DNA of 25,343 nucleotides from a virus (taxonomy: Duplodnaviria; Caudoviricetes). Shown here piece by piece: positions 421-25,343 of the stretch (its first letter is position 1; each line of letters starts with the position of its first letter). Location: positions 1 to 25,343 of IMG/VR virus record IMGVR_UViG_3300037150_000246. One strand, written 5' to 3'. Made by a program: the position numbers and the translations under genes. The notes below the pieces were generated by a model, which searched no databases, was not told the origin of the DNA, and saw only the letters and a program-made list of their open reading frames with translations.

Positions 421-3400
421 TTAGGTAAGCCCCACACCGCTGATAATCCACTCAGTGGTGTTGACTTTTAGTGCGGTCGCCACGCCAACAGCCGTCAAAG
501 TTCTACTGCCGGTAGTCGAAACTGCTCCGGCAAGATACATAGTGTCAGACGTGATGGCGATCAGAAGAGCACCAGCACCTGAATCGTTCACAAACGTAAT
601 TGCTGTACCGATCGGATAAGCAACCGACGAATTGGCGGCAATCGTGAAAGTCCGCGGCGTGGTATCTGACCCGGGATGAAAGATTTGCTCACCCGCATCT
701 CCGATCACCGTCGTATAATCTGCGCTCTTAGAATTTTGTGGAATAATTGTCTGTATCGGTCCTGTAGCACCAGAGACACCCGTCGGACCAACTACTCCCG
801 TCGCTCCAGACACTCCAGTTGGGCCCGTGACGCCGGTCGCGCCTGAGATGCCTGTCGCTCCCGTAGGGCCACCTGATGGGCCCGTAGGCCCGCCAGCGCC
901 GGTCGCACCGGAAACGCCAGTCGGACCAGTAATGCCCGAGGCGCCTGTTGCACCGGCCGCCACCATATTGGTTCTTGCAATTCCAAGGGAGCAGGTGACC
1001 CTCTGAATAGACGTAACGCCGGTGACATTATAGCCAATAACACTTCCGGCCGCGATGCTAGTTGTCCACCCGGTAAGTGTCGTGTCCGAATAATCTACGC
1101 CGCTGGAAATAGTCGGTACATCAGAGGCTGTGATGGTATTAGCAATTGTTGGCGGAAAGTTTGCGTACGCACATACCCAAATATCAACTGTGATCGTGCC
1201 GGTCTGGTTGGCATACAATCGAGCAGCGTTAATCGTGCAAGCGAACGGAACATCGAGAAATCCATATAAGCCCGTTGCAATGGCCGCGCCACCACCGTCA
1301 ATAACGAACTCAATTGCCGCTAACCCTGAAGAACCTAGAGGACCCGTCGCGCCTACAATACCAGTCGCTCCCGAAACGCCCGTAGGGCCGGTGGCGCCCG
1401 CCACTCCGGTCGCGCCAGAGACGCCCGTCGGGCCAGCAACACCAGTCGCGCCACTGACACCAGTCGGGCCAACAACACCCGTTGCTCCACTGACACCTGT
1501 CGGTCCCGTTACGGAAGCGCCTGTCGCACCGCTAACCCCCGTCGGGCCGGCAACACCGGATGATCCGGTACCACCGTAAACTGCGATTTCACATCGATCG
1601 CCATTCGTGAATGTGCCGCTCTGCGTGACGTAAGTTACGGCTAGCTCAACCCAAGTATTTGACCCCTCCTGCGTCGTCGCAGTAACAGTGTAAATAGCAT
1701 AAGCACCAGGCGTCGTAACGTCAGTTATATGAACCGATGCGCCGACAGGAATGTTGTCGAGCCACGGAATCGTGTTTGGGTTGCCGCTGTCTGCAGACGT
1801 CTCATAGATAGCAAGAATGGTTACACTGGCCCACGCCGCGTTATTTGCGCGAAACGCACCAGTACCAGGCGACGCCATCGTAGTGTTGCTCGAATAATTC
1901 CACGTAAAGGACGGCGTCAACCCGGTCGCACCGGACACGCCCGTCGGACCCGTGACGCCGGTAGCGCCGGAAACGCCCGTCGGACCAACGGCACCCGTCG
2001 CTCCTGACACGCCAGTCGGGCCGGTGACGCCAGTCGCACCGGATACACCAGTCGGGCCCGCGGCGCCGGTCGCACCGCTAACACCCGTCGGGCCAGTGAC
2101 ACCCGTTGCACCGCTCACACCTGTCGGGCCCGCGGCGCCGGTCGCGCCGGAGACACCAGTAGGACCAACACCAGAGGCGCCGGACACACCGCTCGGACCG
2201 GCAATGCCCGTCGAGCCGGTAAGGCCAGTCGGCCCCGCGACGCCGGTAGCGCCGGAGACGCCAGAAGGGCCCGCCGTGCCCGTAGCACCGGAAACTCCAG
2301 TCGGGCCTCCAGCGGGGCCAGTAGCCCCACTAACGCCTGCAACACCAGCTACGCCCGAGGCTCCTGTCGCTCCCGTAGGACCACCGGAGGGGCCCGTAGG
2401 GCCGCCAGCACCAGTCGCACCGGTGACGCCAGTCGGGCCGGTGACGCCAGTCGCACCGGAAACGCCAGTCGGGCCGGTGACGCCAGTCGCGCCCGTCGCG
2501 CCTATCCCACCGAAAAAGACTATGCCACAACGATCGCCGCTCGAAAACGTACCTGTCTGGGCAACGTAAGTGACCGCGATCTCGACCCACAAGCCGCCTT
2601 CCTGCGTCACTGCCCCCGCAGTGAAAACTGCGTAGGCACCGGGGGCCGCAATGTCTGTAATCTGAACCGTCGCGCCACTCGGGATATTGTTGAGCATCGC
2701 GGAGATGTTGGGGTTACCGCTATCTGCCGTCAAACACTCAATGGCGAGAGCCGTCACAGAAGACCACGACGAGTTATTTGCTCTGAACACACCGGTCCCA
2801 GGCGTCGACATCGTCAAGAGAGGCGAATAATTCCACGTGAACGTCGTCACGCCTGTCGAACCCGTTAGCCCGATACCGCCCGTTGCTCCCGAAACGCCTG
2901 TGGGGCCGGTGATGCCCGTTGCTCCCGAAACGCCCGTAGGTCCAACAGTACCCGTCGCACCAGAGACACCAGTCGGGCCGATGGTGCCCGTCGCGCCACT
3001 AACGCCCGTAGGTCCAACAGTACCAGTCGCACCAGACACCCCCGTCGGACCAGTTATGCCTGTTGCTCCACTTACACCGGTAGGCCCTGTGAGACCAACA
3101 AGCCCCTGAATGCCCGGAGCACCTGTGGCGCCAGCAACACCCGTGGCTCCCGTCGGGCTCGCAACACCCGTCGCACCGGAGGCGCCTACGGATCCGTCTA
3201 CGCCCGTTGCGCCAGAGACGCCAGTTGCGCCGGCGCCGGTCGCCCCGGCAGTCCCCACACCGGTCGCCCCAGCGGTCCCCACACCGGTCGCACCGGCAAC
3301 ACCGGTCGCGCCAGAAACACCGGTCGCCCCAGCTACACCCGTCGGGCCAACGTACGGGCTGGTTGCGCCCGTAGCACCGCCAACGCCTGGCGGTCCACTG

Positions 3401-3603
3401 ACGCCTGTTGAGCCTGTGATGCCTGTCGCACCAGATGGGCCATCAACACCCGTTGCTCCAGTAACGCCAGTCGCGCCCGTCTGGCCACCAGCAGGACCGA
3501 TTGGGCCGATGGGGCCAGGAGGGCCGATCGGACCAATCGCAATCGGTCCAATGAATGCGGAGTCAATATCGAGAGGGCCGGGACCGGTGCTGCCGTTCGC
3601 CAT
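421..3603 (-). CDS. Collagen-like (Gly-X-Y) virion fibre protein with interspersed globular domains
   Basis: Long GPT/GVS/GAT triplet runs, interrupted by two homologous ~112-aa domains, a third beta-rich domain and a C-terminal domain. Likely start is ATG 3603 (MANGS), just after the upstream stop; the ORF track extends it to 3618. Confidence 0.85.
1571..2841 (-). repeat. Internal duplicated globular domain in the collagen-like protein (about 2507-2841 and 1571-1908)
   Basis: FTWNYS...PGTGxFRANN..W.SVT.LAI....ADSGNPN...L.NIP.GA.V.ITD...PGAYA..T....TQEG...WVE.AVTYV.Q.GTF..GDRC.I...GG occurs twice. Confidence 0.9.
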
Positions 3604-3604
3604 A

Positions 3605-3964
3605 TCAGTAACCCCCACTCAGGAGCGCTTGCGTCGCCTTCAAGATCAATTTGGCGCCGCCGTAACCGTCGGGCTGGATGTCGTCAATCAGATACTGCTG
3701 CCCAGTGGCGATCGTGATCATGTCACCAACACACGGTGTGACTTCGAAATTGCCGAGTTGAATGCCGAGAGATATGGTCACCGTCGACATCTTCGAACCG
3801 TTGTCCATCATCACATCGAGGTGCTGCACCGTCCAAATACCGCCGGACCAATAAGACGTCGCACCGCCAGACGCCGGCTGACTTACAGTCGGCGTGATCA
3901 TAACGGGAACCGCGAAGATCGCCATGTTTGGCGAAAGGACTAATGAGCTAAAATCGATTGGCAT
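3605..3964 (-). CDS. Head-tail joining / head closure protein (lambda FII-like)
   Basis: 119 aa, beta-rich, ends with PxxGDxIxI...YxIxDxxPDGxGxxxLxL, a pattern typical of alphaproteobacterial phage head-tail joining proteins; lies in the virion operon. Confidence 0.65.
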
Positions 3965-4875
3965 TTCACATACCAGTCCCAGGTCTCTTGCAGACCGCGG
4001 TCAATCGAATAGTTCGAACGACACCCGAGGGTGTTAAGTCGGGTCAAATCAATCTCACAATTCATGCGACCGTTCGGCTTCGTCGGATCAAACACAACAC
4101 GAGCCATTGGCACGCCGCTGATGACGGAAAGCTTTTCTGCTATTTGCCGAATACTGTAGATCGTACCACTCCCCGTGTTCATCACACCGTCAACACGGTC
4201 CATACTAACGCGCACAATCTCTGCCAGGTCTTTCGAATAGAGAAAATCACGCTGAGGCGAACCGTCGCCCCACAAGTTGACCTGTCCACCGCTCTCGAGC
4301 GCCTTGTAAAACTTCAAGATCATCGTCGGAAGCACGTGTCCCGTTTCAAGATTGAACTTATCTCGCGGGCCGTACAGGTTACCAGATACGAGATAGCACC
4401 ACTCAAGGCCATAGCTCTCAGCGTAAACTTCCAACATTGCCAGCATCCCACGCTTCGCGTGTGCGTAGCCGGCCTCGCCAGCGTGCGGCCGCCCGTTAAA
4501 GACTGTATCTTCGCAAATAGGACGCTCATGTGGCCACGGGTAAACCGCGTTCGTTCCCATGACGGTGATCTTCTTTGCACCCGAAGTGCGGGCCGCGTCG
4601 ATCACGCTCGTGTTAATCAACGTGTTCTCGAGGTACGAGCGACCCTGATTGTTCAGGTTGCCACCGAGACCAAATACACAAGCGGCAGCATGGAAAACAT
4701 GACGTGGGCGCAAGCAGGCAAACACGGCAGCCGTCGCAGCGAAGTCACGCAGATCGCAGTTAAGCCGGCTAAGACCAACCACATTGAAATAGCCGAGTAG
4801 CCTAAGGTGTCTAACAACAGCGGACCCGACAAGGCCACGCGCGCCCGTGACGATAATCGTGTTTGACAGGTTCAT
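3940..4875 (-). CDS. fcl: GDP-L-fucose synthase family (GMER/WcaG-like) NAD(P)-dependent epimerase/reductase
   Basis: TGARGLVGSA (GxxGxxG), HAAACVFGLGGN, YAHAK (YxxxK), NLYGPRDKF...HVLP, WGDGSPQRDFLY. The canonical GSSCIYP reads GTNAVYP here. Confidence 0.85.
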   Translation of the reverse strand: MNLSNTIIVTGARGLVGSAVVRHLRLLGYFNVVGLSRLNCDLRDFAATAAVFACLRPRHVFHAAACVFGLGGNLNNQGRSYLENTLINTSVIDAARTSGAKKITVMGTNAVYPWPHERPICEDTVFNGRPHAGEAGYAHAKRGMLAMLEVYAESYGLEWCYLVSGNLYGPRDKFNLETGHVLPTMILKFYKALESGGQVNLWGDGSPQRDFLYSKDLAEIVRVSMDRVDGVMNTGSGTIYSIRQIAEKLSVISGVPMARVVFDPTKPNGRMNCEIDLTRLNTLGCRSNYSIDRGLQETWDWYVKCQSILAH

Positions 4876-5687
4876 TTTTTTCCGCCTACGTGCGGCGCTT
4901 CTTGAACCATCCGTACGACTTGCTTCGGTTGCTGCCGCTGCTCCAGAAGGTAGAGGCGGTGTGCCTCCGCGAGTTCCTTCATAGCCCTATGATCCTTGAC
5001 CGAGTGCAGTATATTCGCACCTTTGTTGCGTACAAGGTTCATGGCGATCTTAAAGCCGTTGCTGTAAACTTCGATCTCGTGCTCATTTGGGACCGGGTGT
5101 GCGACTATATCAATTGCAATAGGGCAACTCACGCAATCAAAAAACCGTTTCCACGGCAGACCGGCTGCCATAGTGAGTTGCAACATATAGAAGTCGATGA
5201 ACGGCATTACCGGGGAAGCGGTGATACCATCAGCCACGGCAAGCATCGCCTCGATGGTTCTGCGTGACAAAAAATACGGGGGTTGAAATGCAACGTGCGG
5301 CCACCGTGCAGGGAATGTAGACTGGTGCTCAGGAATGTCGTCATGCACTTGGTTTGACCAAACGACGTCAGGCTCATCGTAGAGATAATCCGGTATTTTT
5401 GGATCGAGGTTCACTGAGTCAGAATCGTGAATGAGAAAATTGTGTTCTGGAAACGTGAGAAGAATTTTTAAATGCTCGCGTTGACGGTCTAGCGAGTCCT
5501 GCCCGATGTACGCGCGTTTACCCCCATATCGGTTCTCAACTCCGGGATATGTAATAGTAGCTTTCGAATCTTCAGGCGACAAAATTACCAGCGGACACTC
5601 ATGATGCAAATACATGCCAATGGAGTGTATCACCATGTGTTGGTCGCCGGCGTAGCAACACACAGCCACTCTTGTGTCTTCGTTCAT
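4872..5687 (-). CDS. Putative GT-A-like glycosyltransferase / glycan-associated protein
   Basis: 271 aa; hydrophobic strand followed by a DxD motif (FLIHDSDS); 4-nt overlaps with both neighbours in the sugar cluster. Function inferred mainly from context. Confidence 0.45.
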   Translation of the reverse strand: MNEDTRVAVCCYAGDQHMVIHSIGMYLHHECPLVILSPEDSKATITYPGVENRYGGKRAYIGQDSLDRQREHLKILLTFPEHNFLIHDSDSVNLDPKIPDYLYDEPDVVWSNQVHDDIPEHQSTFPARWPHVAFQPPYFLSRRTIEAMLAVADGITASPVMPFIDFYMLQLTMAAGLPWKRFFDCVSCPIAIDIVAHPVPNEHEIEVYSNGFKIAMNLVRNKGANILHSVKDHRAMKELAEAHRLYLLEQRQQPKQVVRMVQEAPHVGGKK

Positions 5688-6562
5688 GCCACACCGTCGC
5701 GGCGCAGTTTAGAAGCAGCTAATAAGCACCGTCGGTTTTGAATATCAAAGTCACGAACAGCCTGTAGGCGGCGGCGTCGATCTTTGTCGTTATACACATG
5801 AGTGTAATAGTCGGGCATATGAAGATTGAGTTCCTGCTCAATCCAAGGAGCCGCACGAACAAGTAATCTCACCTTCTCGCGTCCGTGCGTGCCGTTTGAA
5901 AGGATTTTAGCGCGAGCAATAAGATCGTCACGCGTCAGTATTGCCGGCCAATTTGTGACGCAATGATATCCAAAACTACTGGGAGGCGTTTTTGGAATGA
6001 CCGGACCGTGCGCCGTCCAACCCTCATAAGCAAAATCCAAAGCAACATTTTCTGGCGCCCACTTGAAACCGCCGTTCTCTATCTCACGACGATAACGCCG
6101 TGAGATGTTCATGTCTGAATATATCGGGAACTGCTTCGCGTGACAGAACTCAATCATTCGCTTTGTGACTAGAGCAAATCCACCATTCCCGACCGTCAAG
6201 TCTGGGGTCCTCATACACATGTTCGAATGCCACGGCGCGCCGATGTAGTCGTATTGCAAGAACTCGTCGCGCCACATAGCCGGATTGCACGCCCCCGCAT
6301 CCCATTCCAAAAGTAGCGCGTGCGATGTTGTGATCCCAAGCGCCGCTTCCGTGTAATAAAATAAACTGGAGGCGTCCTTAGTGGGCCAGTCGTCGACCTT
6401 AACGTACCGCGCGCCGGGCACGGCTATCCGCTCGCAGTCGTCCGTGTAAATCAAGACATCTCCGAAGGCAACCTTGCTCACAAGATCATTGGCGGTGATC
6501 CGAGCCAACTCATGTGCTCGAGTTGTAGGGATAACTAGTGTCACGTCAGGAAGACTAATCAT
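5684..6562 (-). CDS. DUF5672-family glycosyltransferase-like protein
   Basis: Signature motifs [45 protein letters not shown]. Confidence 0.75.
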
Positions 6563-7572
6563 CGACTACAGTCCGCATTCACCATCTCTTTGACTAGATC
6601 GCGGAAAGTGACGGTAGGTTTCCAACCTAGTGTTATCAGCGCCTTGGTTGAGTCGCCGAGAAGCACGTCGATCTCAGCCGGTCGAAAATAATGTGGATCA
6701 ACACACACGAGTTTTTCGTCGGTGCCGGCGCACACTCCGTACTCGTCTAATCCGCTGCCACGCCATTCAATCGCCTGGCTTATGTGGGTGAACGCGCGCT
6801 CGACAAACTCTCGTACGGAATGAGTTTCACCCGTCGCCATCACGTAGTCGTCTGGCTCCGGCTGCTGTAACATAAGCCACATGCCTAATACGAAATCGCG
6901 TGCGTGACCCCAGTCGCGTTTTGCATCCAAATTGCCAAGGCGCAACGGCGGTTGCGGTCCGCGAAGATGTGCGGCGACCGCTTTCGTAATTTTGCGCGTG
7001 ACAAAAGTGGAACCGCGCCGCGGGCTCTCATGATTAAACAGGATGCCGCTTGACGCGTGCAGGCCGTACGCCTCGCGGTAGTTGCGTGTAATCCAAAAAC
7101 CGTAAAGCTTCGCCGCGCCATAGGGGCTGCGCGGGTGAAATGGCGTCGTCTCAGACATAGGCGTCGGGACGTTGCCGTACATTTCGGATGTGGCGGCCTG
7201 GTAGAAACGCACGCGATCGCTCATGCCTAAGAGACGAATGCCCTCGAGCAAACGCATCGGACCAAGCGCATCTGAGTTTGCCGTGTACTCTGGCGTCTCG
7301 AAGCTCACTTGCACGTGGCTTTGCGCCGCGAGATTGTAGACCTCAGTTGGCTGCACTTCCTGCAAGAGCCGTATCAGGTTCGTTCCATCCGTGACATCGC
7401 CGTAGTGGAGATGGAACGCCGGAGAGAGCGGGATGTGATCAATACGCTCTGTGTTGAATGACGATGCGCGACGCTTAAGGCCGTGAACTTCGTAACCCTT
7501 AGCCAACAACAAATCAGCCAAGTAGCTGCCGTCCTGACCCGTCACACCAGTGATCAAGGCAACTCTATGCAT
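6559..7572 (-). CDS. gmd: GDP-mannose 4,6-dehydratase
   Basis: [85 protein letters not shown]. Confidence 0.97.
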
Positions 7573-8420
7573 GCCACGAAGTCCTTGCAGCGCTGCGGCG
7601 CGTCAGTGTATGGCGGCGCGATCCCGAGGTATGGCACAGTCCTCGAGCAATTCAGCCACCCCACAGGTTCGTTTCCCACCACCGAGATAACCGGTGTCTT
7701 GACCGCTGGAGAGAGAATTGCACCGAAGCCAGCTGCGACGTAAGCCAACGACGCGCGCGCAAACAGCGCCACGAGCAACTCGATAGGTAAACCGCCGTGA
7801 AAAGTAGCCTCCGCTTGGACCTGTGGACCAACGATCCACTCCCTTCCAGGGAGGAGATCAGCAACTGATACAACAAAAAATTGTTCACGGATTTGAGCCA
7901 GGCAATCATGATAGACCTGTGGATCAGGATTGCGCCCGTCGTTCATGCGGGCCTCTGGTCGCTTCGTCAGTGGGCGATAAACCAACATCGGCTGGCCACG
8001 CCAACCTTGCTGCTCCAGCAAGTCGTCCAGCCTAAACTGCCACTCAAACGGCACCGGTATCTCAAAGGTGTCGTCGTCCTCCAGCGTGAGCCCCGCCGAT
8101 CTGAAGATTGCGTCAAGCACCGTCGAAGTCACGTCCATGTGCGTCGGCAGTCGTGTCCAGTATTTGAGTTGGGTCGTCTCGACACCTGTGGGCGCCTTGA
8201 CAAACTTGGTCGCCTCACGAGCCTCGTTCTTTGCCTGCGTCCACAGTGGGGAGTTCATCCGCACGCACTTCAAACCCTGCTGCATAAGATCGTAGTTGAG
8301 CACGGGCCAGCTGGTATACAGCCACACATCCCGGCCATCATGCATGAAACGCCTAACAACAGCCCTCTGGTTGATAGTATCACCTAAGCCATGCATTCCG
8401 CGGATCAACAGGGGCTTCAT
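7554..8420 (-). CDS. GT9-like (heptosyltransferase-fold, GT-B) glycosyltransferase
   Basis: N-terminal [11 protein letters not shown] (GxGD of GT9); C-terminal L..LVALFARA...V...G...LS.AV.TP.I resembles the GT9 donor-binding region. Confidence 0.6.
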
Positions 8421-8689
8421 TGCAGTCTAAACTCACCGTCAACAGTGCGGATTTCAGAGGGCTTGATCAAGGATGCATGCGCTACAGTGATCGAGTGTAG
8501 CGGCCCATCGAGTTGTTCAAGCCAGAAATTGAGAAACCTGTTCAGCTCTGGAAACATTGGACACAGATCGTACTCCTGCCAGACGAACGTCTGTAGAAGC
8601 CAGAGATGATCAGGCCGCCGGTAAAGAATTTCGGCGGTCGTCAGTCCGTAAGCGCCAGGGCTTCTTCCAAACTCAATCGCGGAAAGCAT
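8417..8689 (-). CDS. usg: Usg-family protein
   Basis: YGLTTAEILYRRPDH..LLQTFVWQEYDL.P.FPEL..FL.FW...LDGPLHS.TVAH..LIKP.E.R.VDG.FRL matches alphaproteobacterial Usg. Confidence 0.9.
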   Translation of the reverse strand: MLSAIEFGRSPGAYGLTTAEILYRRPDHLWLLQTFVWQEYDLCPMFPELNRFLNFWLEQLDGPLHSITVAHASLIKPSEIRTVDGEFRLQ

Positions 8690-9261
8690 TCGATTAAGCT
8701 CCCTGGAGAGGCATTAGTTATCTCGACACCATCAACTTTCTTAAAATCCTTAGACCAGCGTGGCCACGAGCGCTTGTTGGCCTCGTCGTTGATGCGCGAC
8801 CAAGCGTACTCGTTGTGATAGTGGCCTGGCGTGTAGTCGAAGCCGAGCAGTGTAATGCGCTTGGCCCCCTTGCGCAAAGCTATCTGAAGAGCAGCGAAAC
8901 CCGATGTACCCCGACGTTCAATGTCGGCTAGGTAGGAGGCTCCACGGATCGGTTTTGGTATCGCGTGCCACCACCATTTACCTAGTACCAAATACAACGG
9001 TTTCGCCTCCGCAAACGCCTCCAGCTGTTCTCTCTTACGCTCGACAAACACCGGGTCGATGCTGACACCGCAGGCGCAGAAATCGCAATCGAACATAGAC
9101 TGGTTGATGCCGACGCTGATACCACGCGATCGGATACGTTCGAAATCAAACCCCCGAAGGGAGGAGCCGCCGCCTATGAGATAAACGCGCGACTCCCCCC
9201 ACTCGGGCAGGCCGAGGTCGCCCCAAGGTATGGGTGACGTCTCGGTGTAGTCACGAGGCAT
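8641..9261 (-). CDS. Maf/MptE-like (DUF115 / sialyltransferase-like fold) putative sugar transferase
   Basis: VYLIGGGSSL, S.GINQS, TSGFAALQIAL.KGAKRITLLGFD, ITNASPGSLI.CFP motifs. Confidence 0.6.
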   Translation of the reverse strand: MPRDYTETSPIPWGDLGLPEWGESRVYLIGGGSSLRGFDFERIRSRGISVGINQSMFDCDFCACGVSIDPVFVERKREQLEAFAEAKPLYLVLGKWWWHAIPKPIRGASYLADIERRGTSGFAALQIALRKGAKRITLLGFDYTPGHYHNEYAWSRINDEANKRSWPRWSKDFKKVDGVEITNASPGSLIECFPRLSLEEALALTD

Positions 9262-9286: not shown

Positions 9287-9900
9287 TTACGCAGCAGCGC
9301 GGAACGAACCATTGAGGCGCACGGCGCCGGTAACGTCGCCGGAAGCCTGCGCTGACACGGCAACGCCGATGACCACGTCGGTGCTGTCGTCGACCGTCGA
9401 GCAGACGCCGAGCTGGTTATCCCAATAGAGCAGCTCACCGATAGTCCACACTGCGCCGGTCTTCTTCGGCAGAGTGTAAACACCGGTGACCCAGAGCACA
9501 CCAATCACCGTCGTGGTGATGCTGTTGAGCGTGGTCTGAGTAGTGAAGCCGGCAACGCCGACCATGCTGCCAATCTTGTAGACGTCGCCGCTGACCATGC
9601 CGGTCGACGGCTGAGATGCGACGGGAATGTAAATTGCCAGTTTTTGTTGTCGCATCGGCTCTTTATCCGACGCTTCTGCATGTCACCATGCAGCTCAGAC
9701 TATATCATCAACTGATTTCTCAGATGTCGGGCGCTCGTGGGTGGATTATTGTTGGGACTCACCACCTAGTCGTTAGAGGTTCTACAGCACCAAAAGCCCG
9801 CTGTAGCTTCCTACGGGATTGTCTCCTAAGAGAGTTTCCCCGTTTCACCCGATTTAGAGGGGACTACTTTTTAATCCCCTTGCTGTAATTGGTTTTGCAT
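9287..9900 (-). CDS. DUF2190-family capsid cement/decoration protein, split by a group I intron (exons 9900-9874 and 9637-9287; 125 aa)
   Basis: Spliced product MQNQLQQGD|AIYIPVASQPSTGMVSGDVYKIGSMVGVAG...GVYTLPK...W..GE.LYWD...IGVAV...AVRLNG fits DUF2190 (MxNxxQxGD start). GAAAGG SD lies 8 nt before ATG 9900. Confidence 0.85.
9638..9873 (-). ncRNA. Group I self-splicing intron (IA-like, with a P7.1-type insertion), 236 nt, no internal ORF
   Basis: P1 exon AGGGGAU pairs with intron GUCCCCU, giving a U.G pair at the splice site. P3 UCGGGUG/CGCCCGA; P4 ACGGG/CCCGU; P6 extension CUACAGC/GCUGUAG; P7 GACUA (9771-9767)/UAGUC (9702-9698) within GAUGAUAUAGUC; P9 CUGCAUG/CAUGCAG; terminal G at 9638. 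Removal restores the reading frame. Confidence 0.92.
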
Positions 9901-9929: not shown

Positions 9930-10649
9930 TCAACCCACCGTCACACCACTATTGATGCCGCGGGATTTTTCAACGACCTCTTTGTTGTTAAGACCCGGGG
10001 GCCGCCGTACCGGGGACAACACTTTGCGCGGTCGCCCACCGCACTTGATGCCGTTTTGCCGCTTACGCAGCTCGCGACTTACCGCTTTTTGACGCTGAAG
10101 TTCTTTGGCTTCTAATGAGTGTCGATGTCCCAAAGCGTTTTTGTTGCCGAGCTTACTCTGACCAGCCTTGTCTCTAGACGCCTCGGACCACGCTCGCCCT
10201 CTCGGTGAAGGCGGTACAGCATTACGTGCTATACTAGCCGCACGAATCTTCAACAGTGCCGCAGGCGTATGCTTATAGCCAAGTCCATTCTTATTACCAC
10301 GCAACTTCAAGCTCATATCAGGACGCGACACGCCAACCGTAGCCACGATCTTTGCTGACCTAGCAACACTGTATTGCCAACCTGATACAATACGCATGCC
10401 GTTCGCTTTACGCGTCATGGACCACAAAGCAAATTGCATCTTACGCTTCTGATCACCGACGAACGGAAACTTTGTTAGCAGCCAATGCGCCAAAAAGTGC
10501 TCACGATAAGTCAACCTGACAATGTTTGACTTATCGTTAGCCCCGCCAAGCGCGCGCGGCACGATGTGGTGACGCTCGCAGTAGTCAACCAGATCACGCC
10601 CGCCTGCGCGAACCATGATCTGGTTGTACCATTTTTCGTATTTGTTCAT
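9930..10649 (-). CDS. Free-standing HNH homing endonuclease with NUMOD3-like DNA-binding repeats
   Basis: ERHHIVPRALGGAND.SNIV.LT.REHF.AH.LL; repeats GNKNGLGYKHT and GNKNALGHRHS. Confidence 0.9.
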   Translation of the reverse strand: MNKYEKWYNQIMVRAGGRDLVDYCERHHIVPRALGGANDKSNIVRLTYREHFLAHWLLTKFPFVGDQKRKMQFALWSMTRKANGMRIVSGWQYSVARSAKIVATVGVSRPDMSLKLRGNKNGLGYKHTPAALLKIRAASIARNAVPPSPRGRAWSEASRDKAGQSKLGNKNALGHRHSLEAKELQRQKAVSRELRKRQNGIKCGGRPRKVLSPVRRPPGLNNKEVVEKSRGINSGVTVG

Positions 10650-10700: not shown

Positions 10701-12413
10701 TTACGCACCATAATTTAAATATGCACCTCGAAAATCGACGGCCCCAACTCCGAAATCGTGTTCTAAGGATATTTTCACGCCCTGAACACCGAATGGCTCG
10801 AAGGTCCGCACGCGCGGGCCGTTGGCGCCATTCAGGAAGCCGTAGATGAAGTTCGGCACACGAGACGGCTCAGAGAACAGGTACCACTGAGTGCCCGTGA
10901 TGTTCGCGTCCGACACCGAGCGCAGGCGCCCGGAGAACGGGTTGACCGATGTGGTCAACGTCGGTGTGATTGCCGTCACCATCTGATCAGCAACAGTCTC
11001 AGTTGCCGGACCAGAGAGGATCAGGCTAGGACCGACGTTCAAGAAGTTGCCCGAAAGCGACTTCATTTGACGCAGTGCCTGACGTGCAGTGCCGATCGTA
11101 GAAATGCCCGGGACTGCTCCGCTGCCTGAAGCGAGGTAGTTGCCGTGTCCGCCCGACGCCACCGACGTCGCGTTGAACACGTTCAAGCCGTCCTGGTTCA
11201 ACACCGGTCCAACGCCGCTGTTCAATTGCAGCATTGTGAAGAAGGTGGTGTTTTCGAAGATCAGCACGGTGTCGCCGGCGGAGCCGAGGATTTGGTCGAT
11301 GGCTCCGAGGTCGTCGTTGACCAGCATCTGACGGGAGATCGTGAAGATCACGCCGTATGGGCTGACGCTGATGTACTCGCCGCTGTCGACACTGGCTCCG
11401 TACTTCAGTTCGCCAGTCTCAGAAACCGGCTGCAACACCGGAAATTCACCCGCGCGGATTTGCGGATGCGGACGGAAGTCGGCAAACGGGCGTTCGACGG
11501 CCAGTTGACGATACGTCGGCATATGCAACTCATAGCGAGCGAGCAGCGACTTGTTGAGCACGTTCATAAAGATGTTCGGAAAGTCCGACGTGCTTTGGAA
11601 CGCGCGTTCGAAGATCAGGTTCGAGTCGGCAGCCGTCAGATAACGGCTGGAGTGACGCGGACGATAGTCGACGCACTCTGCGGCGATGTCCACGAGCCCA
11701 CGACCGAGATACGTCTCCGCGTGCTTGCGGTGCTTCTCGACGCGCGCTGCTTCGATCTTGTCCTTCGGCTTGTACTCGACGCGCGAACCGTGCCCGCCAG
11801 AGTTCAGAACGCGCTGGATCAAAGCGATTTCCATCGCATCGTTCCTGTCTGCGCGCTCGTCGTTGATCACGTCCACAGAAGCACCTCCGTTGATCGAAGA
11901 CTTCGGACCTTTCTCATCCGACTTCTTGGCCAGTTCAGCAAACACCGCCGTACGCATGGCGGCAACCGACTGGCCCTTCTTGATGAACGCCGACATGTCC
12001 AACTCGACGCCGAGCTTACGTGCCTCGACCACGAACTGGCTCATCTCGATGACCTGAGACGGCTTCAGCGAACGCTTCTTGTCGTCGCCTTCCTCGTCGC
12101 AACGCTCGTCGTCATCGTCATCATCTTCGTCGTCATCATCCTTGTCTTCGTCGTCGTCAGTCTTGTCCTTGTCTTTGCGGGCAGCGGCCTTGCGAGCAGC
12201 CACCTTTTCGGCCGTGCGGGCTTCCTTGCGCTCTGCTGTCTCCAGCGCACGCAGTTCTTTTTCCGCCACGAGAACTTTTGCAACGATCTCGGCATGCGAT
12301 GCCTCAATGGCCCGCACTTCTTCGGTAGTCGCCTCGGGCTTCACCTCGGCTAACTTTGCAGTAGCGGCCTGACGCAACGCATCCAGCTCCGCTTTCTTTG
12401 ACTTGCTATCCAT
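10701..12413 (-). CDS. Major capsid protein (Mu gpT-like, HK97 fold) with N-terminal scaffold-like domain
   Basis: AFQSTSDFP, ETGELKYG, YG.IF.ISRQMLVNDDLGA, HDFGVGAVDFRG. N-terminal coiled coil and Asp/Glu tract. SD AAGGAG before ATG 12413. Confidence 0.9.
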   Translation of the reverse strand: MDSKSKKAELDALRQAATAKLAEVKPEATTEEVRAIEASHAEIVAKVLVAEKELRALETAERKEARTAEKVAARKAAARKDKDKTDDDEDKDDDDEDDDDDDERCDEEGDDKKRSLKPSQVIEMSQFVVEARKLGVELDMSAFIKKGQSVAAMRTAVFAELAKKSDEKGPKSSINGGASVDVINDERADRNDAMEIALIQRVLNSGGHGSRVEYKPKDKIEAARVEKHRKHAETYLGRGLVDIAAECVDYRPRHSSRYLTAADSNLIFERAFQSTSDFPNIFMNVLNKSLLARYELHMPTYRQLAVERPFADFRPHPQIRAGEFPVLQPVSETGELKYGASVDSGEYISVSPYGVIFTISRQMLVNDDLGAIDQILGSAGDTVLIFENTTFFTMLQLNSGVGPVLNQDGLNVFNATSVASGGHGNYLASGSGAVPGISTIGTARQALRQMKSLSGNFLNVGPSLILSGPATETVADQMVTAITPTLTTSVNPFSGRLRSVSDANITGTQWYLFSEPSRVPNFIYGFLNGANGPRVRTFEPFGVQGVKISLEHDFGVGAVDFRGAYLNYGA

Positions 12414-12482
12414 GTGAAAAGCTCCTTTGGAATAGCGTTGAGCGCGCACGATTGCGCCAGAACCTCCTCCAAGAGGGCAGAG

Positions 12483-13154: not shown

Positions 13155-13362
13155 TTTGAAACCTCTCTGGGTCGTGGTCCTGGCTCGCGCCGCTGGTTGC
13201 GTCGCGCATCTTGTAATAAACAAGTCGATCGCCGCTGTGATGCTTCACCGCCTCCTTCATCGCGGCATGCGAAGCCTTCGCAACCTTAACTTCTTTCAGA
13301 GCTGCTCCGAACGTGAATTCTGCCTCTTCCTGGTACAAAACGAAACGGGATTGTTTAGCCAT
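13147..13362 (-). CDS. Small protein whose C-terminus repeats the ART N-terminal peptide (LVYYKMRDATSGASQDHDP)
   Basis: 71 aa; overlaps the ART stop and the protease start; contains one copy of the 59-bp repeat in the same reading frame as the ART copy. Confidence 0.55.
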   Translation of the reverse strand: MAKQSRFVLYQEEAEFTFGAALKEVKVAKASHAAMKEAVKHHSGDRLVYYKMRDATSGASQDHDPERFQND

Positions 13363-14104
13363 CGGCGTACGTCCCGCTCATATGAAGAATTTTCTTGCCG
13401 TGGTGTGCCTCTACCCACTCCACTTTTTCAACTTTGAATGTCCCCGGGGCGAGCAGTTGCTCTTTCTGCGAACCGCCCCTTCCCCCCTGATCTGCAACGG
13501 GGCGCATGTCAACAGAGTGGTTACCCTTCGGAACCAATATGTTCAGAATAACGGGGCTTGGCTGGCCACCCAAATAGTCCTGTGCCGTTTTTTCATCAAG
13601 CGACGTCGACTGGAACCCACTCATCGGCACCGTCTTACCAACCATCGCATCCGCGTTCTTATTCAGCTCACGCGAGAGATTGCACTGAGCTATCCCACGA
13701 AACACATGCTCATCAGCGGCCAAAGGACTTTTTTTAATAGCAGAATTGATCAGGTCGATTGACGCGTCCAACTTTGCTAGTTCGTCCGCGGTCAACGCCG
13801 TCTTCTTATAGTGGACGTTATGATAAATGGGCCCCTTTCGGCCATTGCGGTAGTAAGGGTTTAGCCGCGCTGCAGCAGCAAGTGCACTCTCGTCAGCGTA
13901 ATGGCCAAGCGCCTGCTTTTCTTCCTTAGTGTAGGATGTCGAAGTCGAAGCCAGATCGGCTCCTATCGCGCCCTTCTTGCCCTCCGGGCCGATAGCGCCC
14001 TGGTCGCCTACGCTGCCACCACCGCTGCCAACAAACTGGCCGGTGTCTGGGTCGTGGTCCTGGCTCGCGCCGCTGGTTGCATCACGCACCTTGTAATAAA
14101 CAAG
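13166..14104. repeat. 59-bp direct repeat pair (13166-13224 and 14046-14104; 56/59 identical; 880 bp apart)
   Basis: tctgggtcgtggtcctggctcgcgccgctggttgc(g/a)tc(g/a)cgca(t/c)cttgtaataaacaag. Confidence 0.95.
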
Positions 14105-14140: not shown

Positions 14141-15785
14141 CTTTGTCGTCGTCCTTCTCGTCGACGCCTCCGATGACTGGATTTCCATCTTCATCGGTCG
14201 CATCCCCGTCCGAGGGTTTGGTCGGTTGCCGTCCGTGTTGGTCGACGCGACTGACGTCGATGTCGAGCACGACTTCCAGCTCGTGGGCCTTCTTAAAGAA
14301 GTCGGAGAAGTCTTTTAGGTCTTGTCGCCAGTTGCCGCCGCGGGCTGCGATGTAAGCTTGCGGCGTGACGCGGCCAGCGCGCACCTCGTTCTTCTCGGCA
14401 TCGGCGTCCTTCTTAGGATCGATGTATTCAACCGCCGGCACGACCCAGTCGCAAGGATAGTGCCCGGCCTTCAGGGCGCCGGAGAGAATGGCGCGAGAGA
14501 TGAAGCGGTCCCACACAGGCTTGCAGAGCTTCGGAATAACCGTGTGCTGCTGCAACTGCTTCACCAGGCGCCAAAAGTCTAACTTGCCTGCGCGAAGAGA
14601 AGAGTAGTTTGCCTGCCTAAGGTCGCCGGTTATCTGATCATACGTGCAACCGATGCCGGCCGCCATCGCCTGCAAATTGAAAATCATCATCGGCTCGACC
14701 TGCGTCGTACTTGTCGGCTGCGCGAACACAATATCTTGACCCGCGCGAAGCGACTTCACCATACCAGGTTCGAGCGTCGAAGAAAGAGCGTTGGGGTTAG
14801 CCCAGTCCATCGTCTGCATCATACTCTGCTGCGTCGCATCAAACATGTTGGTGGTGGGGATATCACTGGTATCATCATTCTTAATGAAAGCGGCGAAGCA
14901 CGCCTCAACCCTGGCCTTCACGTTCACCGCATCCATAAAGTCGCTGAAGTCTCGACCCGTCGTAAGGATCGGCGCCATCCAAGGAACGCCACGCACCTGC
15001 CCTGGGCGAAGCACCTTGAACATATGGATCAGGTGCTCTTGCCCGATGAAGTCTGAAATATAAGGCAGCTGCCAGATAGTATTCAGTTCGCCAGGGTGGT
15101 TGCGGAACAACCAAAGACCGACGAAGCGGTCGTACTGGCCAAGACCAACACCGAGGCGCGAACGCGTAAGCTTCTTCGCTGCGTTGCGCTCCTCCTTGCC
15201 GATGTCGACCTGCCCCTGGTCACCGTAGATGCCGTCGCGGAACTGATCGATGTAGTCGGACTCGAGCAGCTGCAAGTAGGTTGGCACTGGGGTCTTCGCG
15301 CCGGGAACGTCGAGCATCTCCTGATCAACAAGTCGAATGACAACCTCTCCGCTCTCGATCATGCTGCGCACTGCAAGCGCCTGCATGGCGTAGAAGTTCA
15401 TCATCCCCGTGATGTCGCAATCGTGCGCCCAGTCTTCCCAAAGCTGGTTCACTTTGTTGTCGACTGAATCCTTACCCGTCGAGCTAACCGGAATAATGCC
15501 AGTACCAACTGTATGCGCAGTAAGAATATCAAGCATACGAGCAGCGTGTGGCGTATTGCGCGCCAGATCACGAGAACGATCACGGAGAGGGCGGATCGCA
15601 TACATGAGTTCGCTATTTTCGCTGGTATGCAATGCTTTCCAGCTAGATGCGCGTCGCCCAATTGCCGCTCCTTCATAAATCCTTTGTGCCATACGCAGAC
15701 GTTGACGTCTCAGTCCCGCAGCCGGGTTAAAGAAACCCACAGTCCTATCCACGACGTTGCCGCGTGACTTACTCATGCTGCCCAC
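14130..15785 (-). CDS. Portal protein, lambda family
   Basis: YEGA..GRR, LRDRSRDL.RN, RPGQVRGVPW.AP, TGDL.Q.NYSS.RAG, IDP.KD. Confidence 0.95.
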   Translation of the reverse strand: MGSMSKSRGNVVDRTVGFFNPAAGLRRQRLRMAQRIYEGAAIGRRASSWKALHTSENSELMYAIRPLRDRSRDLARNTPHAARMLDILTAHTVGTGIIPVSSTGKDSVDNKVNQLWEDWAHDCDITGMMNFYAMQALAVRSMIESGEVVIRLVDQEMLDVPGAKTPVPTYLQLLESDYIDQFRDGIYGDQGQVDIGKEERNAAKKLTRSRLGVGLGQYDRFVGLWLFRNHPGELNTIWQLPYISDFIGQEHLIHMFKVLRPGQVRGVPWMAPILTTGRDFSDFMDAVNVKARVEACFAAFIKNDDTSDIPTTNMFDATQQSMMQTMDWANPNALSSTLEPGMVKSLRAGQDIVFAQPTSTTQVEPMMIFNLQAMAAGIGCTYDQITGDLRQANYSSLRAGKLDFWRLVKQLQQHTVIPKLCKPVWDRFISRAILSGALKAGHYPCDWVVPAVEYIDPKKDADAEKNEVRAGRVTPQAYIAARGGNWRQDLKDFSDFFKKAHELEVVLDIDVSRVDQHGRQPTKPSDGDATDEDGNPVIGGVDEKDDDKGGD

Positions 15786-16165
15786 CGCCGATAGTTTGCT
15801 GCACTGAGATTTGCTTTGTGCGCCGCAGTAAATGGCGCACGAGACACGCCCGTCTTGGTGGCAGCAATGCGCTGCTTCACATCTTCCGAGCGTGGAATAC
15901 CGAGGTGTGCTTCGCGCAAATTATCGCCGCATACAGTAATCTTGATGTTGCCGACTTCGTACGCACCTAGATCACCGGGACGAGCCATCACATACTGACC
16001 TCTTTTACGCCCGCGCTCTTCCAAATGCCCTGAGGCTGCCCAAACATTCAACCACTGATCAAACGTCAACCGAAAGGGTATCCCGCGAACACGCGCAGCG
16101 TAGCCTTGGTTTTTCCAAGCCCGACGAAGCTTTGACTGTGGACGTGTTGGATATCCCATTACCAA
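15773..16165 (-). CDS. HNH-like homing endonuclease
   Basis: A..RGIPF.LTF.QW...W, QYVMAR.GD.G.YEVGNI.I....N..E; NUMOD3-like tail (SEDVKQRI, TAAHKANLS). Confidence 0.75.
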   Translation of the reverse strand: MVMGYPTRPQSKLRRAWKNQGYAARVRGIPFRLTFDQWLNVWAASGHLEERGRKRGQYVMARPGDLGAYEVGNIKITVCGDNLREAHLGIPRSEDVKQRIAATKTGVSRAPFTAAHKANLSAANYRRWAA

Positions 16166-16619: not shown

Positions 16620-17750
16620 TCAATCAAGACCAAGCCCAAGCTCTCTGTTGGTGCGCTGACCGCCCCAGACAAACCAAGGATCGTGGTTAGCCGTACGTGG
16701 TTCATCAACCAGCACAGGCCACTGACAAGTGAAGCCGCGCTTTGAGTGAAGAAAGATCAGGCTCTGCGCCGGCTTCGAAGCTCTCACACGCAGCTGCAAG
16801 TGTGCATACGTGTTGTGGCCAATCAGGCAGGGGTTGACGTAGACAGGCGTCGCGTCGCCACGCGGCATGTAAAAATGAAAGTGTCCGATGACAAGCGTGT
16901 CGAAGTCTTTGCCAATCGATCGCTGCTGCGCACCGAGCTTCATCGTCCCTCGTGAAATGGGCCCGAGCTTGCCAATCAACGAGTCGCCGCCGGTCACGCC
17001 TAACGTGTCTCCGTGCGTCACCATGAACTTGTGACCAAAGACCGAGAAGAACGCGTCCACCGCGTTTGGCACGTAGACCTTGACGCGGGCGTCGTCGCGA
17101 AAATACTTCTCGACGTTACAGTAGATCAGCCATTCCCAGCTCTCGTAAATCTTGTTGTTTAGCCGCGGCTTGATAGTCGAGCGCCCGTGGTTTCCGGGGA
17201 CGCAGACAACAGAAATGTGCTTGAACTTTTTTGCCCAAAACTTCAGCAGTCCAATGATGTAGTCCTGCACGTCCTGAATTGAAAACGTCAGAGGCCCATC
17301 GTTCGTGACAGTCAGGTCATCGTGCAAGCAGCCGGTTATAAAATCACCGAGCAACAACACGACCGCGCCAGGGTAGTTTGGGTTGGTCATGTGGTTGAAG
17401 CAGAGATCGTCTACAGCGTGAGCCAGGTTACGCACGCGGCGCTTCGCTATCTCGCGATTGAATTTATTCACGCCCCCGACTTGGTCGGGGTCGACCGTTT
17501 CGCCGATGTGCCAGTCGCCGAGAGTGATGATAGGGATGCCGGTGCTCGACTTGCCGGGTTCTTGATTGAGCCACTTCGGTGGATCGGGGCTGTACTCGGC
17601 GAGGCCAAAAATCTCTTTTCGTACACGCTCCGCGCTCTCGTTCTCCATCGCACGGCGCCGCAGGTCGCGCTCTAGGATGTTTAGCTTGACGTTCTTTTGG
17701 CGAATGACCTCACGAGCTTCTGAAAGTTCTTGCGCCAGCGTTGTGGCCAT
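16620..17750 (-). CDS. Calcineurin-like metallophosphoesterase with N-terminal coiled coil
   Basis: GDWHIGE, LLGDF, PGNHGR, THGD, GHFH motifs. Likely start ATG 17750 (TGATG coupling to the upstream stop). Confidence 0.85.
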   Translation of the reverse strand: MATTLAQELSEAREVIRQKNVKLNILERDLRRRAMENESAERVRKEIFGLAEYSPDPPKWLNQEPGKSSTGIPIITLGDWHIGETVDPDQVGGVNKFNREIAKRRVRNLAHAVDDLCFNHMTNPNYPGAVVLLLGDFITGCLHDDLTVTNDGPLTFSIQDVQDYIIGLLKFWAKKFKHISVVCVPGNHGRSTIKPRLNNKIYESWEWLIYCNVEKYFRDDARVKVYVPNAVDAFFSVFGHKFMVTHGDTLGVTGGDSLIGKLGPISRGTMKLGAQQRSIGKDFDTLVIGHFHFYMPRGDATPVYVNPCLIGHNTYAHLQLRVRASKPAQSLIFLHSKRGFTCQWPVLVDEPRTANHDPWFVWGGQRTNRELGLGLD

Positions 17751-18069
17751 CAGAGTACCTTGTGGGTATCGCGCCAACGTTGTGCCGCAACCGCGCGACA
17801 CTGTCGGCACAGACGACCACTGCGGCCATCTTTCCTACGATAAGTGTTCCCCTCAGTATACGTATGTCCGTGTTTACAAGCAGGAGCCAAAGGCCGAAAT
17901 ACTTGTGCCGCCTCCGTCGCCAACAATCTTGTTGCTGTAGACACTCGGCGCTTGCCCAGCCAGGGCTGCAACTGATTAAATACCTTACTTGCTTGACCGA
18001 TTCGCGACGTCTTCCAAGTGAAAACCCCCGTGCTGTTTGGCCCGTAAATAACGCCACACCGCACCTGGC

Positions 18070-18585
18070 CTAATGGCACATAGATACCAAGGCCCAAACT
18101 ACGACACCCACGAATGGGGCGGCGATGCCACAGATTGCACCCCATTTGAATTTCTTTGCATTGGCTTCGATAATGCGGAGATTGTCGGCAATCTGTTCTT
18201 GGATATGAACTGCGCGCTCGCCAAGACAGTCATGCAGTTTTTTGCCTGCAACTACATCTGATTCCCAATTTTCCGGCTCGCATCCCGGCAACCAGAATTT
18301 TACCGGCATTATGACCAGCAGGCACAATATCGCACCAAGCAAAAACATTCCGGCCGCTACACCAGCCCCAAACATAAGAGCCACATGGCCAGAGACATTC
18401 CACGCCGGATTTGCCAACGCGACAACGGCGGCCAGTAGAGCGGTGGCAGCAGCAGTAAACATGCCGGCGAGACCAGAAGCGCGCTGATCCGCCGATGTAG
18501 CTACCCGTAGCTGACCATCGAGATACGCTTCGCCGCCGCGAACAATCTCCTTGCTGAAAATGTCGTCTATCTTAGTAAAATCCAT
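18070..18585 (-). CDS. Three-TM membrane protein, Pycsar effector (PycTM/DUF5706)-like topology
   Basis: ADQRA followed by TM1 and TM2 ending in Pro, a soluble loop, QI..N..I...N.KK, then TM3. SD AGAGGA before ATG 18585. Confidence 0.5.
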   Translation of the reverse strand: MDFTKIDDIFSKEIVRGGEAYLDGQLRVATSADQRASGLAGMFTAAATALLAAVVALANPAWNVSGHVALMFGAGVAAGMFLLGAILCLLVIMPVKFWLPGCEPENWESDVVAGKKLHDCLGERAVHIQEQIADNLRIIEANAKKFKWGAICGIAAPFVGVVVWALVSMCH

Positions 18586-18809: not shown

Positions 18810-19032
18810 CGGGGGAGAATAGCATGGCTAATAAAAACTCCTCAATAAAGGCTCTTCGCGCGCTTTTGCGCGATCCAGCACAACTCGCTTAAAATGTACA
18901 AGCAACCCACGATCTTTTTGAACTAAGCTTGCTGCCGTACGAAACACCCTCGTGCCGTTCACACGCGCCTTATAGTAGTGTGCATAAAAACAACCTTCCC
19001 CCTCAAAAAAACCGGCGGCCCATGCAAACGCT

Positions 19033-19287
19033 TCAGACATCGGGGTAAACCTCCCCGTTTTGAAGCACCCTCTGATCCTCGTACTTAGAGGCCAATTTTC
19101 GGTAAAATTCGAGCTTGGCGCATTCCAGAGCACCGATGATGTCGTTGATCTGCTGATAACGAGAACCGCACGACTGCCAGTACTCAATCAGCAGATGTGT
19201 GATGGTATAGTTAAGGTCGCCTGCGCGCTCGATGCCGCGTTCTTTGTTGTCTAGTTGAAAGCGCTCAAGCGTGCTCAGATAAGGCAT
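19033..19287 (-). CDS. Conserved phage protein (DUF6899-like)
   Basis: MPY...GDLNY.IT...Y...N.IIGALECAKLEFYR.....YED.....NG.VY is a recognisable conserved phage motif. Confidence 0.75.
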   Translation of the reverse strand: MPYLSTLERFQLDNKERGIERAGDLNYTITHLLIEYWQSCGSRYQQINDIIGALECAKLEFYRKLASKYEDQRVLQNGEVYPDV

Positions 19288-24931: not shown

Positions 24932-25252
24932 TCACTTCCCAAGTAGTCGTTGCAACGCGGTCTTAGCCCTGTCAGAGCCACCAATAGACGCAGGGTCACT
25001 GAACGTAAGCAAATAACTGAGCATTTCCTCATAGCTGCGCATCATAACATCACCCGAATTATCTTTTATTCGAGGGCGATGAATGATTTTAGGAACAGCG
25101 TAATTTTCCTTTCGGGGTAGAGTCTGCGCTCGTCGCCATGTTCCAGATTGGCGACGAGCTACTTCAAATTGCCAACCACTTATGGGACGCGAGCCCCGTG
25201 TCATGCACCGAAATGCGTTGATCATAGCCGCACGGTGCTTCTTCGACACCAC
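24932..25252 (-). CDS. Possible hypothetical protein (start uncertain)
   Basis: Co-oriented ORF ending 7 nt before the gpZ-like start; its 5' half overlaps hairpins, so only the C-terminal part may be coding. Confidence 0.3.
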   Translation of the reverse strand: MVSKKHRAAMINAFRCMTRGSRPISGWQFEVARRQSGTWRRAQTLPRKENYAVPKIIHRPRIKDNSGDVMMRSYEEMLSYLLTFSDPASIGGSDRAKTALQRLLGK

Positions 25253-25343
25253 AATTTTCGTTAGTAACCAATGGGCTAAAAAATGCTCTCGATAGGTTAG
25301 GTCTACTAGGTTGGTGGGAGCGTCAGTGCCCCCTATAGCACGC

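Follow-up and report, generated by a model that had tools for sequence, protein, structure and literature searches.

Introns that encode no enzyme of their own, and that lie beside a free-standing endonuclease gene, are known from several phages. In T4, the MobE enzyme makes a nick in the 5' part of nrdB, the gene downstream, and mobilises the intron of nrdB (PMC2790892). Collaborative homing has been described for ORF-less introns located beside free-standing enzymes (PMC3984707, PMC2988022, PMC10448857) and, in ICP1, an endonuclease gene lies beside the short first exon of the terminase gene (PMC10448857). Reviews stress DNA metabolism and terminase genes as intron hosts (PMC3984707, PMC11878797); introns have also been described in the capsid gene of mycobacteriophage LittleE and in tail genes of BAKA/Optimus (PMC3706429), as well as in the major capsid protein (MCP) gene of crAss-like phages (PMC7886860).

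The window that we analysed is a whole contig of 25,343 bases. Three sequencing runs contain most of it, two of them labelled peat metagenome, and the contig may derive from the best of the three. Family profile searches identified on its minus strand the terminase, lambda-type portal, prohead protease, major capsid and cement genes, and the last of these is interrupted by a group I intron, with an HNH gene next to it (Table 1). The intron is real, and the locus adds one more case to a known class of selfish elements. The product of the second exon matched PF09956 (E 3e-19), the head decoration family phrog_122 and, at the profile level, PDB 9gay_C, the minor capsid protein gp48 (E 1.2e-4); the DUF2190 / Phage_cement_2 profile match and the place of the gene after the major capsid gene put it in the cement family. 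Elsewhere in the window, a 59-base direct repeat (95%) links positions 13166-13224 and 14046-14104, its motif lying near the start of an ADP-ribosyltransferase-domain ORF (14203-13355, after the portal gene) and again in the next small ORF (13362-13147). The head module is followed on the minus strand (3940-9261) by predicted sugar-modifying genes and a Usg-like gene, labelled partly from reading their translations, and then by a 1,065-aa collagen-like protein (421-3618); this block is partly common to the two related loci called L007 and L014 below.

Table 1. Features of the interrupted cement gene and its upstream flank, in window coordinates.
Feature	Position	Strand	Comment
Exon 1 of the cement gene, 9 codons, MQNQLQQGD	9874..9900	minus	Last base is the U of the U.G splice pair
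Likely ribosome-binding site AAAGG, 8 bases 5' of the start codon	9909..9913	minus	From sequence; function inferred
ORF-less group I intron, 236 nt, without P2, in-frame TAA first, terminal G9638 last	9638..9873	minus
Internal guide sequence, P1 3' strand; G9864 pairs with U9874	9858..9866	minus
Catalytic core: P7 strands 9771-9767 and 9702-9698, around P7.1, P3 3' strand and P8	9698..9771	minus
In-intron AUG taken by gene callers; sits in the P9.1 stem, unlikely start	9653..9655	minus
Exon 2, DUF2190 / Phage_cement_2 head-decoration gene, 116 codons and stop	9287..9637	minus
Free-standing HNH homing-endonuclease-like gene, 239 aa, T4 MobE/MobC family; predicted intron mobiliser	9930..10649	minus
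Major capsid protein gene, upstream flank	10701..12449	minus	PF25209 E 5e-42

A sequence-only reading of this DNA had proposed the intron, with P1, P3, P4, P6, P7 and P9 pairings, a U.G splice pair and a terminal G, all of which we recovered in the sequence. The covariance-model check that it had suggested gave a match to Rfam RF00028 (Intron_gpI) at 9883-9676 of the minus strand, with 62.2 bits for a gathering score of 50 (E 9.1e-14), the sole other Intron_gpI match in the window having an E-value of 0.76. The intron strand folds with a z-score of -4.3, and none of 200 shuffles was as stable. Besides P7, the fold comprises P1 (9880-9872/9866-9858), P3 (9852-9846/9733-9727), P4 (9843-9839/9817-9813), P5, P6 (9812-9810/9779-9777), P6a, P7.1 (9766-9762/9744-9740), P8, P9 (9693-9687/9682-9676) and P9.1 (9673-9667/9658-9652). 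P9.0 pairs A9695-G9694 with C9640-U9639, immediately 5' of the terminal G; P10 appeared weak by eye, with about two pairs.

Covariation was assessed on an alignment of 11 sequences, namely the window intron, its copy in L007 and nine more distant introns, with a structure derived from the window sequence. In this alignment 89% of cells pair and 28 of the 53 pairs change on both sides, a result equalled in 0 of 500 shuffles and higher than in all slid controls. P3, P6, P7 and P9 are 100% paired over the 11 sequences; P7 and P9 are invariant, partly since the search pattern fixed them, and P4 and P5 are misaligned (53-55% paired), so that the weight of covariation is carried by P3, P6, P6a, P7.1, P8 and P9.1. 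The P9.0 position is Watson-Crick in 50 of the 74 related introns with a found end motif, against 22 +/- 3 in shuffles, these sequences not being independent of each other. The score above the curated threshold, the core helices, the U.G pair in P1 and the terminal G together place the element among group I introns, and we hold it to be almost certainly a functional one with ends at 9873 and 9638, splicing itself being predicted. Subgroup IA2 is characterised by two hairpins, P7.1 and P7.2, between P7 and P3. The window intron has a P7 of this T4 type, and covariation supports a single P7.1 helix; we thus filed it as class IA-like and not as IA2.

The reading had also noted that the intron opens with an in-frame TAA, which is indeed present: an unspliced RNA would yield only a 9-residue peptide from the exon 1 start, and removal of 9873-9638 restores a product of 125 aa. 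The search for intronless homologues, another of its suggestions, recovered ten proteins forming one 90% cluster, about 72% identical to exon 2, that read M/V-KNQLQ[QN]GDAIYIP across the junction, and two loci (L014 and L015) with uninterrupted DNA at this place. Exon 1 is identical at 23 of 27 bases to L014, at 21 of 27 to L015 and at 25 of 27 to the intron-bearing L007, whose start is likewise preceded by AAAGG. The homologues thus continue straight over the junction, which confirms both splice sites, and they match the proposed 9-codon first exon. With a family HMM built from 110 more distant homologues, the spliced product obtained 111 bits over model positions 1-111, against 102 bits over positions 15-111 for the unspliced ORF from 9655; splicing recovers at codon 8 of exon 1 a glycine that occupies its column in 110 of 110 homologues, and the spliced N-terminus is family-typical, as claimed. 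The HMM is blind to a one-base shift of the junction at both ends; what tells the two junctions apart is the U.G pair, together with P9.0 and the Ala codon found in intronless alleles. Alternative in-frame splice pairs had a lower family score or lacked a U.G pair. Because the 27-base exon is invisible to gene callers, a wrong N-terminus was called in both intron-bearing phages (proteins P0001 and P0017), and the start of the cement gene is here corrected in both.

The second bearer, L007 (IMGVR_UViG_3300050119_000006), carries the same 236-nt intron at the same site. The two introns are identical at 225 of 235 aligned bases (95.7%), with compensatory changes in P8. Their host genes are far more divergent: exon 2 shares 66% of its bases and 61 of 115 amino acids with that of L007, versus 84 of 115 amino acids with the intronless L014, and fourfold-degenerate sites match between window and L007 at only 18 of 42 positions in exon 2 and 75 of 136 in the capsid gene. 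The last 900 bases of the capsid gene have 79% nucleotide identity to L007 and 78% to L014. Around the junction, by contrast, all 24 bases from -15 to +9 are identical to L007, versus 19 of 24 in L014 and 17 of 24 in L015. This pattern points to a recent horizontal transfer of the intron with short co-converted exon tracts, although constraint on P1 and on the ribozyme accounts for part of it and, since group I cores are strongly conserved, may lie behind part of the 95.7% identity. A single-sequence locus search of viral contigs gave no match, and in later viral scans the L007 contig was the only close cement allele found. We found no full-length copy of the intron in cultured phages, and the one bacterial-genome match to a junction pattern was an unrelated protein. 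The distribution of the intron is patchy and follows horizontal spread, not the relationships of the host genes.

The HNH gene, located between the capsid and cement genes, ends 29 bases before exon 1, so that its stop codon lies 56 bases from the insertion site. Its product matched phrog_655 (E 4.5e-33) and shares 45% identity with T4 MobE over 77 aa (E 1e-21) and 40% with MobC over 92 aa; no solved structure was found for it, and a promoter seen by eye was not found by a promoter scan. A broken orthologue occupies the same place in L007. The gene is thus upstream in two of two intron-bearing phages and in neither of the two close intronless loci (L014 and L015, a single lineage, with proteins 94-99% like one cluster). 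Neither an intron motif nor a match to the window HNH was detected in the 53 cement loci L014-L066 and, among 43 loci of the HNH family, the only one with a nearby intron motif was the L007 contig (42 without). We also considered an HNH gene residing inside a larger intron and rejected it, P1 being local and exon 1 matching the intronless alleles.

An ORF-less intron adjoining a free-standing homing endonuclease gene is the layout of collaborative or trans homing, and the association of HNH and intron across these few alleles may point the same way. By the established chemistry, free guanosine would attack after U9874 and exon 1 would then attack after G9638. In a mixed infection, the HNH enzyme would nick the start of an intronless cement gene, and repair would then copy the intron together with short stretches of exon, in the way that T4 MobE mobilises the nrdB intron; the cement-gene intron itself would be a near-neutral passenger and not a regulator. 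We favour with moderate confidence this full mechanism, a self-splicing intron predicted to be mobilised in trans through nicking by the adjoining HNH enzyme. The small number of alleles weighs against it, as do the frequency of this HNH family away from introns and the broken state of the L007 copy. The locus makes a compact test case for trans homing: its ribozyme is 236 bases long and lacks P2, the enzyme is MobE-like, L014 provides a natural intronless target and L007 an allele in which the enzyme is broken.

The capsid-cement interval differs in the intronless relatives (features at L014:1635-2165 and 2167-2583, and at L015:1905-2276). They have there an alanine-rich ORF of 123-138 aa, with no family match, that is absent from both intron-bearing phages, and L014 has in addition an unrelated phrog_374 HNH gene; this ORF and this HNH gene indicate that the interval is a hotspot of turnover. 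The window also contains other endonuclease-like ORFs, all on the minus strand (24932-25342, 17750-18145, 18828-19187 and 15773-16165): a second phrog_655 member truncated at the end of the contig, two other HNH-like ORFs and a phrog_16521 ORF just before the portal gene.

The best surviving alternative, unlikely but to be taken seriously, is that the intron splices while the HNH gene is an independent selfish gene at a hotspot beside the capsid gene, and that the intron owes its movement to a different enzyme in trans, to reverse splicing or to ordinary recombination. The different HNH gene of L014, without intron in the same interval, fits this explanation, as do the at least three further HNH-like ORFs of the window and the share of homing-endonuclease genes, 31% in one class, that are located near capsid genes (PMC10448857). 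It also agrees with the divergence of the HNH copies, which are 67.5% identical in nucleotides between the window and L007 and match at 12 of 25 fourfold sites (middle part): they have diverged like the host genes and unlike the intron, so that the intron and the HNH gene did not move together in the last transfer. Against this, the same HNH family flanks the intron in both bearers and was found in none of the 53 cement loci without it, and both the 56-base distance between the HNH stop codon and the insertion site and the MobE precedent, which shares the layout, argue for mobilisation by the adjoining HNH enzyme.

The claim that splicing gates production of a structural protein stood only in part. 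The in-frame stop does make splicing obligatory for the cement protein, but regulation is unsupported, and a regulatory gate on cement production seems to us improbable. A role of phage introns as molecular switches has been discussed (PMC11878797), and the intron persists in L007 despite the broken HNH gene; however, close relatives make the same protein without an intron, an Rfam search of the window found no riboswitch or other Rfam element nearby, and the distribution of the intron tracks horizontal spread rather than host-gene relationships. In-frame stops are moreover common in group I introns, having been described for many of them as a likely folding aid (PMC3984707).

In five RNA runs, assembled contigs match portions of the cement and capsid genes with no mismatch; such contigs show presence and not absence, their uncovered parts say nothing, and DNA may be present within the RNA-run libraries. 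The exon-exon joint was not found in the contigs of these five runs and of three other runs, where contig cover is thin. One RNA-run contig (X4, 9250-9659) crosses the 3' splice site unspliced by 22 bases and may represent precursor or DNA. Another (X8), mismatch-free over its 212 bases and of depth 3.5, has its end precisely at 9638, as expected of an excised intron, which is a weak hint given that contigs cannot show RNA ends. Runs X1, X3 and X12 yielded contigs with related introns matching window positions 9645-9676 and 9668-9840; two such contigs share the intron 3' end but have another exon after it, and a contig from an RNA run shows about 94% identity across 173 bases.

That the intron is dead or bypassed, the protein being made from the in-intron AUG at 9655 (MRQQKL...), is highly improbable: the missing spliced contig, the frame shared by this AUG and exon 2 in the window and the 122-aa database protein P0001 that begins there would fit, but the AUG lies within P9.1 and is closed in L007 by a stop after one codon, which makes this start an annotation artefact, as the sequence-only reading had held, its product lacks the invariant glycine of the family, and the core has kept its helices, P6 and P8 showing compensatory changes.

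The same reading had considered a decoration gene to be an unusual host. We surveyed related introns with a pattern drawn from the P3-P8-P7 region, which recovered 122 loci in half of the viral collection, corresponding to 87 distinct cores; 78 of these had a downstream frame of at least 30 aa, of which 69 were scanned after 9 near-duplicates had been dropped. The best PHROGs hits were to major head proteins for 35 frames (10 families), tape measure for 3, tail fibre for 1 and cement for 1 (L007), that is, a virion structural family in 40 of 69; the others were ATPases (4), nucleotide metabolism (2), families without known function (3), endonucleases (3) or none (17). A disjoint control pattern, in which P7 differs, recovered 122 loci in 3 of the 64 parts of the collection. 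The first 80 were taken, providing 73 usable frames, of which 60 were scanned at a stricter E-value and 13 dropped (chance-like, psbA or tmRNA hosts, or wrong frames). Virion structural genes represented 21 of these 60 (15 major head, 2 tail sheath, 3 tape-measure-like and 1 other), next to 3 terminases, 11 DNA/RNA metabolism genes, 1 glycosyltransferase, 7 endonucleases, 2 without known function and 15 without hit.

As judged from these assignments, structural genes are common hosts of such introns and the cement gene itself is a rarer one, the only cement match among the 129 frames being the copy of the window intron in L007; in both samples frames were chosen automatically, lineages were not dereplicated and the collection favours contigs with virion genes, and the automated 5' splice-site calls for related introns are noisy. 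The host is thus not unusual as a virion structural gene, as the published cases also indicate, and is rarer as a cement gene. We found no published intron in a DUF2190/cement gene, although the list of more than 100 phage introns of PMC11878797, which was outside the search, may include one. Across the loci recovered (L001-L013, L113-L234, L235-L314), major capsid genes were the commonest assigned host in both samples, with at least 10 PHROG families. One locus (L003) has at least three introns in a single capsid gene region, and related introns in L115, L130, L202, L213 and L216 lie in genes of unknown function (phrog_16490 for L202 and L216), possibly unrecognised structural genes. In uncultured phages, the major capsid gene looks like the commonest host, in contrast to the textbook emphasis on DNA metabolism and terminase, within the limits of automated exon calls and partial samples. 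This survey pattern outweighs the single case in importance, and mis-annotation of split capsid and decoration genes is probably widespread.

By core score as well as by path in the tree, the closest intron outside cement genes is located in an unrelated phrog_334 major capsid gene (L002:1810-2075, plus strand). Its insertion site and that of the cement gene agree at 14 of 21 bases (QDGD-LIY versus QQGD-AIY), and none of the 5,623 T-ending sites on the minus strand of the window matched as well. An intron apparently occupies this capsid site in L134 too. The lineage was seen in 10 major-capsid families, tape measure, tail fibre and cement genes. As a speculative scenario, which we consider doubtful, the intron could have jumped out of a capsid gene into a site of similar sequence in the cement gene, where a pre-existing free-standing nickase would then have adopted it, within a large, under-described lineage residing mainly in virion genes; only one such pair was examined, and the intron tree, in which the 10-row group has a support of only 81/82 and a long branch, is not settled by bootstrap.

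Compared with known introns, that of the window has the same P7 strands with a bulged C as the T4 td, nrdB and nrdD introns (NC_000866), and its P9 is identical to that of td. It differs from them by having no P2, no ORF and an altered, compensated P6, and by a single P7.1 helix with an internal loop where the T4 introns, which carry ORFs, have two hairpins between P7 and P3. Its presence in a structural gene is shared with the group I-type introns of LittleE, BAKA/Optimus and the crAss-like MCP (PMC3706429, PMC7886860); the BAKA intron is likewise short (265 bp) and ORF-less, and is kin to an intron in a different structural gene (PMC3706429). As in T4 mobE/nrdB, a MobE-family HNH gene (45% identity over the nuclease domain) lies just upstream of a gene whose intron cannot mobilise itself (PMC2790892), the differences being that the host is here a virion cement gene and that the intron is ORF-less and follows the first 27 bases of the gene. 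For the mycobacteriophage introns RT-PCR provided confirmation (PMC3706429), the MobE target has been mapped (PMC2790892) and collaborative pairs are defined by cleavage at the insertion site, whereas the window intron and its pairing with the HNH gene are known, and the role of this gene predicted, from sequence alone. The combination of an ORF-less intron and an adjacent free-standing endonuclease is also that of the cyanophage psbA intron, T7-like phages and the ICP1 terminase gene (PMC3984707, PMC2988022, PMC10448857), the latter having in addition a short unannotated first exon adjoining the endonuclease gene, as here (PMC10448857). The present pair is distinguished from these collaborative pairs by its host gene and by the different ages of its two members, the HNH gene being the older.
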